From the NCBI GenBank assembly GCA_019057475.1, contig DXJO01000046.1:64001-128000 (forward strand): a stretch of DNA of 64,000 bases, in the 5' to 3' direction. Each line of letters opens with the position of its first letter. Position 1 is the stretch's first letter. This document shows positions 36,850-64,000 of this stretch, in pieces. Position numbers and translations under genes: made by a program. Source of the DNA: Candidatus Thorarchaeota archaeon. GTDB taxonomy: Archaea; Asgardarchaeota; Thorarchaeia; Thorarchaeales; Thorarchaeaceae. Under the pieces are notes generated by a model, which did no database searches, was not told the DNA's origin, and was given only the letters and a program-made list of their open reading frames with translations.

Positions 36850-38088
36850 ATGCACTTCGAAGAGACTGACGAAGAAAAGATGTTCCGCGAGATGGTGCAC
36901 GACTTTGCCCAAAAGTACGTAGCCCCCGCTTGGCGGGACTATGATAAGAACCACGAGATCCCCCGTGCGCTCATCAAGAAGATGGCCGAGCATAACCTCT
37001 GGGCACCTACGGTCGCAGAGGAGTACGGTGGAGCCAATATCTCGATGACAATGGCTTGCATCGCGGCAGAGGAGCTCGCTAGAGCAGACCTCTCAATTGC
37101 GTTGCCTGTCATGTACCTGGTCGAGGCTTCATGGGCATTCATCTTTGACATGTACGGCACTGACGAGGCAAAGAGCGAGCTTCTACCACGAGTCACCAAG
37201 GGTGACCTGTTCTTTGGTATCGCCACAACCGAGCCAACCGGAGGTTCAGACCTCGTTAATGTGACAAAGACAATTATCAAGCCAAAGGGTGACGGCTTCG
37301 TTGTTAACGGTGAAAAGGTCTACATCAGCGGCATTGCTGAAGCGGAGCAGTACGGCGGTGTCTACTGGACCCTGGCTAAGTCTGACCCCAAGGGCGACCA
37401 CAAGGCATTCGATGCGTTCATTCTCCCATTCAATATGGGCGACGGCCTCCATCCAGGCATCACCACCACACTGTTCGAGGACATGGGTAGGATGGGTGTT
37501 TCCACTGGTGGCTTCAATATGGAGAACATCGAGATTCCCAAGCATTACATGATTGGCGAGCGCGATAGAGGATTCTACATGGCGATGGAAGGTTTCTCCG
37601 CAGCTAGAGTACTCATTGGTGCTACATGCCTTGGGTCCGCCGAGGGCGCCTTCGACATTGGTTGCGATTACGTCAAGCAGCGCAAGCAGTTCGGTCGACC
37701 ACTGGCATCCTTCGAGGGCATTATGTTCGAGGCTGTTGACTCCTGGATGCAGCTCCAGGCAGACAGGCTTCTCGTCTACAAGGCCGCCTACATCATGGAC
37801 CAGCACTATCGCGAAAAGAATCCCAGCTATTCGAAGCTCGACATTGCTAAGTTCACAGCGGCTGCGAAGTTCAGAGCTCCTCATGACGCTCTAGATATCA
37901 TCACTCGCGCCATGACGTGGCATGGAGCATTTGGATACACCAAGGAGTGCCCACTTGAGGCAGCGTACCGGGGCGTACGGTCATACACTGTCGGTGCAGA
38001 GGGCGGATCTTTGGTGCAAAAGATAGTCATGGGCAGGGAAATTTTCGGTCCTGAGTATCTCCCGTACCGGCAAGAGAAGCAGAAGTAG
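36850..38088 (+). CDS. acd: Acyl-CoA dehydrogenase; its 3' end is the template of the downstream repeat array
   Basis: EEYGG, TEPTGGSD, NGEKVYIS, RKQFGRPL, HGAFGY, EGG. Confidence 0.95.
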   Translation: MHFEETDEEKMFREMVHDFAQKYVAPAWRDYDKNHEIPRALIKKMAEHNLWAPTVAEEYGGANISMTMACIAAEELARADLSIALPVMYLVEASWAFIFDMYGTDEAKSELLPRVTKGDLFFGIATTEPTGGSDLVNVTKTIIKPKGDGFVVNGEKVYISGIAEAEQYGGVYWTLAKSDPKGDHKAFDAFILPFNMGDGLHPGITTTLFEDMGRMGVSTGGFNMENIEIPKHYMIGERDRGFYMAMEGFSAARVLIGATCLGSAEGAFDIGCDYVKQRKQFGRPLASFEGIMFEAVDSWMQLQADRLLVYKAAYIMDQHYREKNPSYSKLDIAKFTAAAKFRAPHDALDIITRAMTWHGAFGYTKECPLEAAYRGVRSYTVGAEGGSLVQKIVMGREIFGPEYLPYRQEKQK

Positions 38089-38190
38089 TTCTCATTCTGG
38101 TTTGAGAAAGGCACGCCCTCTCTCCAGCTCTCTTTTTTCTCACCCACCCCAGTACCAATCCTCCTCAATACGATAAGTTACATAATGCGC
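38020..38190 (+). repeat. R0: resident acd 3' end (KIVMGREIFGPEYLPYRQEKQK*) plus downstream hairpin and pyrimidine tract
   Basis: aagatagtcatgggcagggaaattttcggtcctgagtatctcccgtaccggcaagagaagcagaagtagttctcattctggtttgagaaaggcacgccctctctc. Confidence 0.95.
38103..38140 (+). terminator. Putative acd terminator: GAGAAAGG/CCTCTCTC hairpin followed by a T-rich tract
   Basis: Imperfect inverted repeat ~15 bp after the stop, followed by ctctcttttttct; conserved in most repeat copies. Confidence 0.6.
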
Positions 38191-38503
38191 TCCTTTTATC
38201 AAATCGAACAAGGAACATCGATTGAGCGCTCAGGGATTCAGGTTTCAGTTGTTTCCAGCGCCAGAACGTCGCATCAAGAAGCGTCGGCAGAAGATTGCTG
38301 TCATTAACGAGGAGCTTGATTTGAGGGAAATCTGGTTTGAGATTGGGCCTAGGAGAGTGGTTCAGGCAGACTTATGACAGCCCTTTAGAGAAACGAAAGA
38401 AGGAGCATTGGCTCAAGACCATGGCGCTAGTCTATGACTAGTCATTGAAGCTGAACCATAGAATTATAGATTCTCCTTGTCAATGGAAAACAGGTGACCT
38501 CAA

Positions 38504-39112
38504 GTGCCATGGAAGGTCTATCGAGCGCATAAGATACGCAAGGAGCCTGTAGATTGCGATTTCGAGGGAACCATTGTTGATCTCGAAACTATCGGGCCAT
38601 TCACCCCTGTGTCATCACGTAGGCTTGAATTCGGTCAAGATTTCATCCGAAAATATCAGAGAATCAAAGTGACGACCGTTGGTACCCTCTCTGACGGTGT
38701 ACTTCAGATAGCTATTGCACTGGGACCGGAACACTTGGATAAGTTTGGGAAGAAGGTATTTTCAATTGTGTCGCGGTCAGACCGCCCGCTTTACGCCTTT
38801 AACAAGCCGTTTGAAGAGGGATGTCTTTTCTGGATTTCCAAGAATATATTGAGTTTTGAGAATGAGCTTCAGGCATTCTCTCGGGAGAATAAGGAACGAG
38901 CCGTCCAACAACTGAAGATTCCGAGCTACAACGACCCGTATAGAGGACAGGGTAAGAAGTGCGTCGATGCCTTCATCAAAGGGGATCTAGAGAATATTGC
39001 CAAGCATAACCGGGCTTGTTTGTTAAAGGAGCGTGACATCCTCAGGATTCGAGGTGCACGCACGATGCAGACCAAATGGTTAGATATTGACAAACTCGGT
39101 CTGTCTAGTTGA
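38504..39112 (+). CDS. Predicted RNase H/DnaQ-like fold protein
   Basis: IVDLETIG, LYAFNKPFE, IAKHNRACLLKE resemble DEDD/RNase_H_2-like motifs. Confidence 0.55.
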   Translation: MPWKVYRAHKIRKEPVDCDFEGTIVDLETIGPFTPVSSRRLEFGQDFIRKYQRIKVTTVGTLSDGVLQIAIALGPEHLDKFGKKVFSIVSRSDRPLYAFNKPFEEGCLFWISKNILSFENELQAFSRENKERAVQQLKIPSYNDPYRGQGKKCVDAFIKGDLENIAKHNRACLLKERDILRIRGARTMQTKWLDIDKLGLSS

Positions 39113-39225
39113 TAATCAGAACACGAAGATATTCCAATGCTTCCTTTGAGAAGGTCCTACTCTGCAAGAGTCCTGCCTCCTTCAATGATAATCTATAAAG
39201 ACAAGAGGTTCCTGCTACTGAATGG

Positions 39226-39558
39226 ATGAGAACGACTGATTGGATGAACACGAAACGGCTTCTCTGGTGGCTGATTGCTGGCACACGAGGTGGAGTAAAC
39301 CGTGCCAGAATCATAAATCTCCTACACGAGAGGCCGTATAATGCCAATCAACTCGCAAAGCTTCTAAGACTTGACTACAAGACAGTCAGGCATCATCTTG
39401 CCTTCTTGATGAAGCACGAGGTTATCGTACAGCAGGGGGAAGGGTACGGTTCAGTCTACTATCTGTTTAGTGAGATTGACGCGAGCTTCGAGAGCTTCAG
39501 AGAGATTTGGGCACAAATTGGGAAAAGTGGTAAAGGTGGTAATGTTGACACAGAATGA
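39226..39558 (+). CDS. Winged helix-turn-helix (ArsR-like) regulator
   Basis: LLWWLIAGTRGG.NRARII, PYNANQLA..L.LDYKTVRHHL, YG..Y. Confidence 0.9.
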   Translation: MRTTDWMNTKRLLWWLIAGTRGGVNRARIINLLHERPYNANQLAKLLRLDYKTVRHHLAFLMKHEVIVQQGEGYGSVYYLFSEIDASFESFREIWAQIGKSGKGGNVDTE

Positions 39559-39562
39559 TGGA

Positions 39563-62709: not shown

Positions 62710-62788
62710 TCTTTTCTTCCTCCTACTAGTGTTGAGATATAAGAAGTCGCTGCATTCTCTCAGACCAACTGAGAGAATCTTTAGGATG

Positions 62789-62804
62789 TGTCATAAATAT
62801 GACA
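62789..62804. promoter_or_regulatory. Perfect 7-2-7 palindrome TGTCATA-aa-TATGACA in a divergent promoter region
   Basis: Lies between divergent starts at 62709 (-) and 62950 (+); AT-rich core. Confidence 0.45.
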
Positions 62805-62949
62805 ACACTGTGAACTAGACTATGTCCGGAGCTTTGCCTTAAGGCTTCCGGAACCTAGTTTCTCTGTTTTTCCTATCTTCAACCTGTAAGTTGGTATAGC
62901 AGAGAAGGCTATATGTGTGTGAATTTAACCCAACTGAGAGGTCATCAGA

Positions 62950-63654
62950 TTGGAAGTACTAGTAATCAATGGCAGTCCTAGAAAAGATCGAGGAGCAACA
63001 GGTGGAATTCTCTCGCCCTTTGTTGAGGGGATGAAGGAAGCCAAAGCTGATGTGGATGTCATCTATTCCAAAGGTCTAGATATCGGAGATTGTCGTGGAT
63101 GTTTCAACTGTTGGACAAATACACCCGGCAAATGCATCCAAAATGATGAAATGACAGAAGTGTTGGCCAAGATTGCTGACTCTGATATTCTAGTCCTTGC
63201 TACACCAGTGTACGTTGATGGAATGACTGGGTCCCTCAAGAGTTTCTTAGATAGATCAATTCCCCTATTGCATGGGAGGTTCGAGCTACGGGATGACCAT
63301 TGTCGCCACCCTAGGAGAGCACATGTTAAAACTGAGAAACTCGCACTTGTATCAGTAAGTGGTTTTACTGAGATGGATAACTTTGACTCACTGATTCATC
63401 ATATGAAAGCACTCAGCAAAAATCTGGGTTGTGAGTTCGTAGGTTCCCTTCTCAGACCTTATGCCTGGATGCTCGATCCAGCACAGGAACAAGACGCCCC
63501 TGTGAGTGATATTCTCGAATCTATAAAACAGGCAGGATACGAATTAATCTCAGAAGGAACTATGAAAGAAGAGACCCTTGCTACTGTTGCTCGTGATATC
63601 ATTCCTCGTGAGGAAGTTATCAAGATGATGCAAGGATACTTCGGTGACAAGTAG
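62950..63654 (+). CDS. Flavodoxin-family iron-sulfur flavoprotein (NADPH-dependent FMN reductase-like)
   Basis: INGSPRK, CRGCFNCW...GKC, LATPVY, LKSFLDR. Confidence 0.9.
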   Translation: MEVLVINGSPRKDRGATGGILSPFVEGMKEAKADVDVIYSKGLDIGDCRGCFNCWTNTPGKCIQNDEMTEVLAKIADSDILVLATPVYVDGMTGSLKSFLDRSIPLLHGRFELRDDHCRHPRRAHVKTEKLALVSVSGFTEMDNFDSLIHHMKALSKNLGCEFVGSLLRPYAWMLDPAQEQDAPVSDILESIKQAGYELISEGTMKEETLATVARDIIPREEVIKMMQGYFGDK

Positions 63655-63760
63655 CCATTACGTATTAAGCAGAGTTTGGAATCATTAATTTGCTCGAACG
63701 ATAAACGAGATTTTTGTGGCTGACGATGCATTCGCTGACCATCCTGGCGATAATCTGTGA

Positions 63761-63856
63761 GAGGGCATCATTCGATTCCGACAACTTGGTGGGAAGCAGA
63801 TGTGATTCCTCAATCTGCAAGAGAGAAGTTCATCCTCGCTCACTCGCCTTTCTTCA
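63761..63856 (+). repeat. R11: strongly decayed copy with type B-like arm
   Basis: gagggcatcattcgattccgacaac...gaagcagatgtga...gagagaagttcatcctcgctcactcgcctttcttc aligns by eye to R2 and R7. Confidence 0.65.
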
Positions 63857-64000
63857 GAAGAAAAGGGGAGGGGAATGGCGCCCCCTCAATGAATCTCAAC
63901 TATACGGTCACTCTCGGTTTGACAATTGATTGCAGCCGATTAGTACTACCACCAGACCAACAATCGGCAGAGGTATGACCTGAGCCAGAATGGAAAGAAT

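Follow-up and report, generated by a model that had tools for sequence, protein, structure and literature searches.

Why does the 3′ end of a single housekeeping gene recur, time after time and always in the same orientation, between small sets of unrelated genes? The question is raised by a window of 64,000 nucleotides from a Candidatus Thorarchaeota genome (G000; assembly GCA_019057475.1, contig DXJO01000046.1, positions 64,001 to 128,000), to which all coordinates refer unless another contig (C-numbers) or a fetched locus (L-numbers) is named. The gene is acd, which encodes an acyl-CoA dehydrogenase of 412 aa (36850..38088, + strand; Pfam Acyl-CoA_dh_N/M/1), has no close paralogue in the G000 genome and serves as the anchor of an array of gene cassettes. 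We consider it somewhat better than an even bet, with a probability of roughly 0.58, that this array consists of stacked remnants of earlier acd tails, left behind by repeated homing with a replacement tail and by recombination between the repeats.

The present functional tail of acd, comprising its last 22 codons, the stop codon and a hairpin, occupies 38020..38140 on the + strand and contains junction 1, at about 38023 between AAG and ATx, and junction 2, the core CAAGAGAAGCAG at 38071-38082. A profile search with the repeat returned the native end at 38020 and 11 displaced copies in the window, some of them partial. Every match lies on the + strand, with E-values between 1e-39 and 6e-3, and a shuffled genome used as control gave no match at E<0.01. 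Copy 1 (41661..41790) has an open frame and a weak hairpin and is followed by copy 2 (42642..42770), by copy 3 (46229..46293), of which only the right half with stop and hairpin is present, and by copy 4 (47876..48004), whose identity with the native end is 86% across 170 nt. Only core and stop are left of copy 5 (49199..49240), after which comes an empty 119-bp interval. Copies 6 (49270..49394), 7 (58761..58884), 8 (59396..59522) and 9 (59876..60005) follow, then the frameshifted copy 10 (61101..61233) and the strongly decayed copy 11 (63735..63860; profile match 63793).

Past the window the array continues with five further copies, at window-equivalent positions of about 67833, 68310, 69322, 70408 and 70915, and stops ahead of an ABC transporter operon about 7 kb beyond the window; in all it measures about 33 kb and holds about 16 displaced tails. 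Six intervals contain one gene of >120 aa each, and a 484-bp interval contains one small membrane open reading frame (ORF). An earlier, sequence-only reading of the window had listed co-oriented copies of the acd 3′ end, the lengths of their intervals and six one-gene intervals, all of which agrees with what we found. Its expectation that the repeat would occur only downstream of acd failed, since about 10 more copies lie on C28 (three, co-oriented), C51 (four, co-oriented), C22, C8 and C42. In the probable source run, 38078-47950 (9.9 kb) lies within a single unitig of even depth, so the three repeats inside it are not assembly joins. All runs consisted of assembled contigs; unitigs break at the most similar repeat copies, and the joints in the source run that go back fit other copies.

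The copies carry the signature of protein-coding sequence. When 48 alignable copies were compared with the acd of their own genome, differences lay mostly at synonymous sites and numbered 164, 114 and 380 at codon positions 1, 2 and 3, and among the copies alone the split was 82/71/145 (p=3e-8). In the relative G010, four copies have 4-5 synonymous changes and still encode the peptide of the host acd tail, unchanged at every residue. Genome-specific residues are kept by the copies in G010 and in G014, where the copies hold the distinctive cysteine of that genome. The terminator-like hairpins of the copies differ in sequence and retain their pairing. Homology begins sharply near AAG/ATC, and the left flank is unconserved across 59 copies. 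Because untranslated duplicates would lose the codon-position pattern, each copy was probably once a working acd end, and the replacement and displacement of the acd 3′ end that had been proposed is thereby borne out.

Arrays with other cargo were found downstream of acd in G001 (13 copies), G010, G014, G017, G023 and several metagenome loci, and array contigs lacking acd in G003, G005, G006, G008, G011, G013 and G044. No repeat copy follows acd in G009, G018, G021, G024 or G025. In this array and in those of relatives, an interval mostly contains a single gene, which may point either way, and the median length is 1.2 kb. Within the genus, cassettes with DUF362, flavodoxin, FMN reductase and LLM-type genes and the 484-bp unit are shared at 84-94% identity and reordered. 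In the independent runs X2 and X5, the block 41776-45647 is essentially without cover while its flanks are covered, and contigs from these runs join the repeat core straight to the flavodoxin cassette. Cassette content and order thus vary among relatives, and blocks are gained or lost at the repeats, as the sequence-only reading had anticipated on both counts. All these indicated that the array is real, dynamic and widespread in this lineage.

A LAGLIDADG endonuclease and an ATPase in the slot next to acd in relatives

In relatives, the slot adjoining acd is often occupied by a convergent gene (600-1050 aa), upstream of which there is usually a gene of about 860 aa. The product of the former has helix-turn-helix (HTH) repeats, and at its C terminus a double LAGLIDADG domain in which both motifs are present and the catalytic acids are invariant; the latter encodes a HerA/VirB4/TraG-like ATPase. 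An endonuclease or ATPase gene, or a remnant of one, was present in 9 of 16 first intervals and in 1 of 109 later ones, a comparison in which the G044 array is counted and in which the relatives are not independent, so that kinship inflates any p-value. The predicted structure of the endonuclease (pLDDT 92) matches LAGLIDADG-family structures, including I-SceI, I-DmoI and PI-SceI; these matches came from a fold search, and when solved structures were searched by sequence the endonuclease domain had no match.

The endonuclease family was detected in 36 of 86 genomes of the host's family, and the ATPase in 37 of 86. All eight acd-linked enzymes fall inside one supported clade of 10, and its sister clades are likewise locus-specific. 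At junction 1, acd alleles that stand before an intact endonuclease differ from the common sequence at 3-6 positions, compared with 0-6 in endonuclease-free alleles (p=0.008); this stronger recoding beside an intact enzyme is what immunity of the invaded allele predicts. The acd of L095, which is as close to that of G000 (90% DNA identity) as that of the congener G001, is followed by an endonuclease and an ATPase in its first cassette. A copy just past the window (window-equivalent 67822) has 26 nt in common with the recoded L095 allele, reaching to the left of the usual edge, and in G044 the displaced copies of the array include a recoded tail that is accompanied by an endonuclease remnant.

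The family was also seen at other loci. A phylum scan found the endonuclease family in the host's family, in 12 of 19 genomes of a single other Asgard family and hardly at all elsewhere among those searched. On G000 C21 (65134-83316, L142) a tRNA-Ala array contains several tRNA 3′ fragments, its first unit encodes a divergent LAGLIDADG-like protein (902 aa) and an ATPase of the same family, and no integrase was found on that contig; the pair also lies beside tRNA-Ala in G005 (L180). At L185, L188, L184 and L189 the endonuclease, accompanied or not by the ATPase, stands at other genes that are partly duplicated: 3′ copies were seen for a carboxyltransferase, a 5′ duplicate of 254 nt for a carboxylase and a repeat of 41 nt for etfA. 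Within G000, a truncated endonuclease lies on C18 (17714-18637), its G004 orthologue having 1522 aa and an ATPase, and another ATPase-endonuclease pair lies on C42 (397823-405408).

A proposed homing cycle and its rivals

In the cycle that we propose, a sensitive acd allele would be cut by the endonuclease some 66 nt ahead of the last base of the stop codon. Repair of the upstream side from the donor allele would bring in a recoded tail that is immune, together with the endonuclease gene and any DNA that follows it. The downstream side, bearing the old tail, would be joined to a displaced tail of the donor, as a rule through homology and now and then by end-joining; this would make a new cassette boundary and place the donor's cassettes ahead of the recipient's. 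Recombination of the acd end with the first repeat would delete the endonuclease, restore a sensitive allele and reset the cycle, and exchanges between one repeat and another, for the most part at the core near the stop, where conservation is highest, would delete, duplicate or reorder cassettes. The acd array of G000 would represent the endonuclease-free state. Such a cycle would explain why the copies look like coding sequence, why their left edge is sharp, why the enzyme is confined to the first slot and how cassettes come to be mixed. The system would then be a new form of homing with gene-tail replacement, one that acts in series and carries cargo; its mechanism is one that we infer. A wider proposition, which in our view falls somewhat short of an even chance, is that a two-gene module of LAGLIDADG endonuclease and HerA/VirB4-like ATPase replaces the integrase in a class of Asgard gene-capture platforms. 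Such platforms would target the ends of housekeeping and tRNA genes, displaced tails would act as portable homology arms and whole cassette sets would move between cells.

Several observations weigh against this cycle. No endonuclease or ATPase remnant was detected in the acd array of G000 by profile and DNA searches. The best fold match of the endonuclease model is WhiA, a domesticated LAGLIDADG-plus-HTH protein, and strict monophyly of the eight acd-linked enzymes was rejected, their clade including two enzymes not shown to be acd-linked. An age gradient of the copies was obtained for the G000 array (rho -0.57, p=0.05) and for none of nine other arrays, so that there is no consistent gradient. 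In four of five comparisons, shared cassettes keep the downstream left arm and switch neighbour within about 12 nt after GAGAAGCAG, three of the four switching right at GAGAAGCAG; the fifth switches near the left edge. At some of the neighbour changes just after GAGAAGCAG, near the stop, there is no homology beyond it. Homing at junction 1 leaves this second hot junction near the stop codon unaccounted for. In addition, a 95-bp non-coding insert enters and duplicates the repeat core (G000 C28 14913-15917, C51 86212-88401 and C22 12676-12764; L201, L203, L205, L210 and L213). It ends in the inverted repeat TACATCT-8 nt-AGATGTA, which is typical of tyrosine-recombinase sites, and its end motif occurs in up to 15 of 86 genomes. 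Finally, at L262 (G013:C52, 8400-10555) a tyrosine integrase of 329 aa is followed, at a distance of 1.2 kb, by a core-plus-terminator copy.

The repeats may therefore serve a site-specific recombinase as well, and the main rival account starts from there. A helper element would provide a tyrosine recombinase in trans, with the core AGAGAAGC as its crossover; cassettes would leave as circles and insert anew, either at acd or at one of the copies, as they do in integrons or in the accretion of integrative and conjugative, integrative and mobilizable and cis-mobilizable elements (ICE/IME/CIME), the endonuclease cassette being a mere passenger. We judge this account unlikely, though it deserves serious weight. 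As it would have it, swaps of neighbours and joints between contigs are concentrated at the core, and it fits the half-sites, 20 of 101 sites consisting of left arm plus core only and 13 of core plus terminator only. It likewise fits the duplicated core and inverted-repeat end of the 95-bp insert, the integrase on G013:C52, and the end of a co-oriented integrase that lies upstream of the repeat copies on G000 C28. Yet a crossover at the core cannot make the 50 coding nucleotides upstream of it or their synonymous signature. There is no integrase in any of 121 array intervals or at the end of the G000 array, PF00589 was not found in the array-bearing genomes G001, G010, G014, G017 and G023 (completeness 81-98%), and of the 12 integrase loci that were fetched from relatives, just one has a tail copy beside it. 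The serine recombinase family PF00239 was not found in G001, in G010 or on the contig of the G000 array, and two pattern scans returned no viral contig with either site. The claim of the sequence-only reading that the cassettes are recombinase-free is thus upheld over the 121 intervals, and no recombinase was found at the end of the array, past 64 kb, where it had suggested looking for one.

The other explanation that calls for no recombinase is one founding insertion followed by ordinary homologous recombination with donor DNA, with crossovers in acd and in the repeat, the LAGLIDADG protein being a hitchhiker or a WhiA-like DNA-binding protein. Crossovers at more than one position, including one near the left edge, the many arrays without an endonuclease, that of G000 among them, and the rank of WhiA as top fold match speak for it. 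It leaves unexplained that dozens of unrelated cargos are joined to the same left edge, that the enzyme is nearly confined to the first slot with invariant catalytic acids, and that neighbouring alleles are recoded at the junction, and we regard it as improbable. Least credible, and largely refuted, is a dispersed element of the MITE (miniature inverted-repeat transposable element) or REP (repetitive extragenic palindromic) kind, or an assembly chimera: about 10 copies do lie elsewhere in the genome and unitigs do break at the most similar copies, but where such an element would be dispersed, in both orientations, with terminal inverted repeats and of non-coding origin, the copies are clustered, co-oriented and coding-derived, a single unitig spans 9.9 kb, and arrays recur behind acd in many independent assemblies.

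Some further observations concern these sites and enzymes. On C28, one copy of the 95-bp insert forms a perfect palindrome with the core, with 12-bp arms, and the integrase and copy of G013:C52 form a classical attR-like arrangement. PF00589 occurs in 10 of 24 relatives of the host's family, and a conserved XerA-like gene was not seen. Another coding-derived repeat, ending in EVRLRTWFIR-stop, is found in defence islands near a tyrosine integrase (G000 C51 94114-106586, C22 16213-20207 and C32 6064-6131). G000 has a second array built on the tails of a protein gene: on C44 (24861-26416), single small genes are flanked by two displaced 3′ ends of an aminopeptidase-like gene.

Cassette contents in the window

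Cassette 1 (38141..41660), in which no LAGLIDADG or ATPase remnant was found, carries an RNase H-like (YprB-type) protein (38504-39112, on the basis of Atlas features only) and an ArsR-type HTH protein (39226-39558), after which membrane proteins reach 41570. The cassette 2 gene (41795..42565, - strand; 256 aa, no family) is uncovered in runs X2 and X5. A beta-helix/Ig surface protein (891 aa) and a flavodoxin make up cassette 3 (42768..46196, -), and the flavodoxin is a repeat-bounded cassette of its own in G001 and in both runs. The MFS transporter cassette 4 (46300..47775, -) is partly common to G001, where it has another rank. Cassette 5 has a gene of 215 aa (48344..48991, -), and cassette 7 consists of a beta-helix/cadherin-like adhesin of 3068 aa alone (49438..58644, -).

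To the right of the adhesin, cassette 8 contains an ORF of 128 aa with no family (59003..59389, +), and the 484-bp cassette its small membrane ORF (59511..59696, -). The 484-bp unit occurs twice in the G000 array, the second time further down, and its homologues have other ranks in G001 and G005. Cassette 10 (60054..61049, +) encodes a DUF362 protein, and a cassette 94% identical to it stands between different neighbours in G001. Cassette 11 (61219..63654) combines a 496-aa protein of no assigned family (-) with an FMN reductase (+), which forms a separate cassette in G001.

Comparison with known systems

An integron was considered for this locus and rejected. True attC integrons are known in Asgard archaea (PMC9668308), and the acd array resembles integrons in its fixed platform and its small, exchangeable, repeat-bounded cassettes, whose content and order vary between relatives. 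It differs from them in that its boundary is the end of a host gene and in its lack of IntI, its lack of an attC fold and its mixed gene orientation (PMC9668308). No IntI lies next to the array, the nearest integrase in the genome scoring 15.5 bits against the TIGR02249 cut-off of 265. The bottom-strand hairpin fold of attC was not detected (z-scores -2.0 to +1.2), the copies sharing no fold except the post-stop hairpin, the repeat has no Rfam match, and the cassettes are not generally co-oriented in the G000 array or in relatives. Of the integron-like capture platform that had been suggested at the outset, the variable, recombinase-free cassette array stands and the integron-type recombinase that it implied is not supported, none being present at the array's end and PF00589 not being found in five genomes.

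ICE/IME/CIME accretion (PMC5704250) shares with the array repeated insertion at a 3′ end and target fragments between decayed, recombinase-free elements, and the fit is poor. Unlike accreted elements (PMC5704250), the array has no integrase in any interval (0 of 121; one lies beside the core-only copy of G013 and one upstream of the C28 copies) and no conserved arm to the left of the copies. An element-side att arm was seen only in the minority 95-bp insert, the left flank being unconserved in 59 copies. The units are also mostly of about 1.2 kb with one gene, and homology extends to both sides of the usual exchange point. The portions available of the accounts of aloposons (PMC8813620) and of Yucahu-type ICEs (PMC11529989) present these, too, as Asgard elements with site-specific insertion and cargo; unlike the acd array, they use tRNA sites or an 11-bp att site and an integrase of their own, and neither displaced protein-gene tails nor the endonuclease-ATPase pair is described in those portions. 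In the literature covered, mostly without subscription papers, no description of a repeated acd-tail array or of the endonuclease-ATPase pair was found.

If the proposed cycle is true, it would provide Asgard archaea with an integrase-independent route to gather and reshuffle accessory genes, namely adhesins, redox proteins, transporters and defence genes, and would bear on how Asgard genomes gained much foreign DNA. It would also supply new candidate meganucleases with predicted targets.

The closest likeness is to the mobile ORFs (mORFs) of fungal mitochondria, reported for atp6 of Allomyces macrogynus and for atp6, atp9, cox2 and nad3 of Glomus (PMC3630166). In these, a free-standing endonuclease gene (LAGLIDADG or GIY-YIG) lies between a replacement end and the displaced native end of its target gene, the two ends encode a near-identical peptide from divergent DNA, and the endonuclease is proven (PMC3630166). 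The relatives likewise show a replacement gene end, an endonuclease gene and a displaced native end. Downstream C-terminal coding fragments are duplicated with a protein-coding signature, an endonuclease ORF lies between the new and the displaced end in 9 of 16 first intervals of relatives and in none of the G000 array, and the modelled fold is that of LAGLIDADG enzymes with intact catalytic acids. Architecture and predicted fold in the relatives would thus place the system among elements of the mORF kind. Unlike mORFs, which are single organelle events with no cargo array (PMC3630166), it resides on an archaeal chromosome with up to about 16 displaced tails, carries 1-3 cargo genes between the tails, shows reordering among relatives, and has a HerA/VirB4-like ATPase as partner. 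If our reading is correct, the homing strategy of single events in fungal mitochondria would here be extended to a repeated cassette system.

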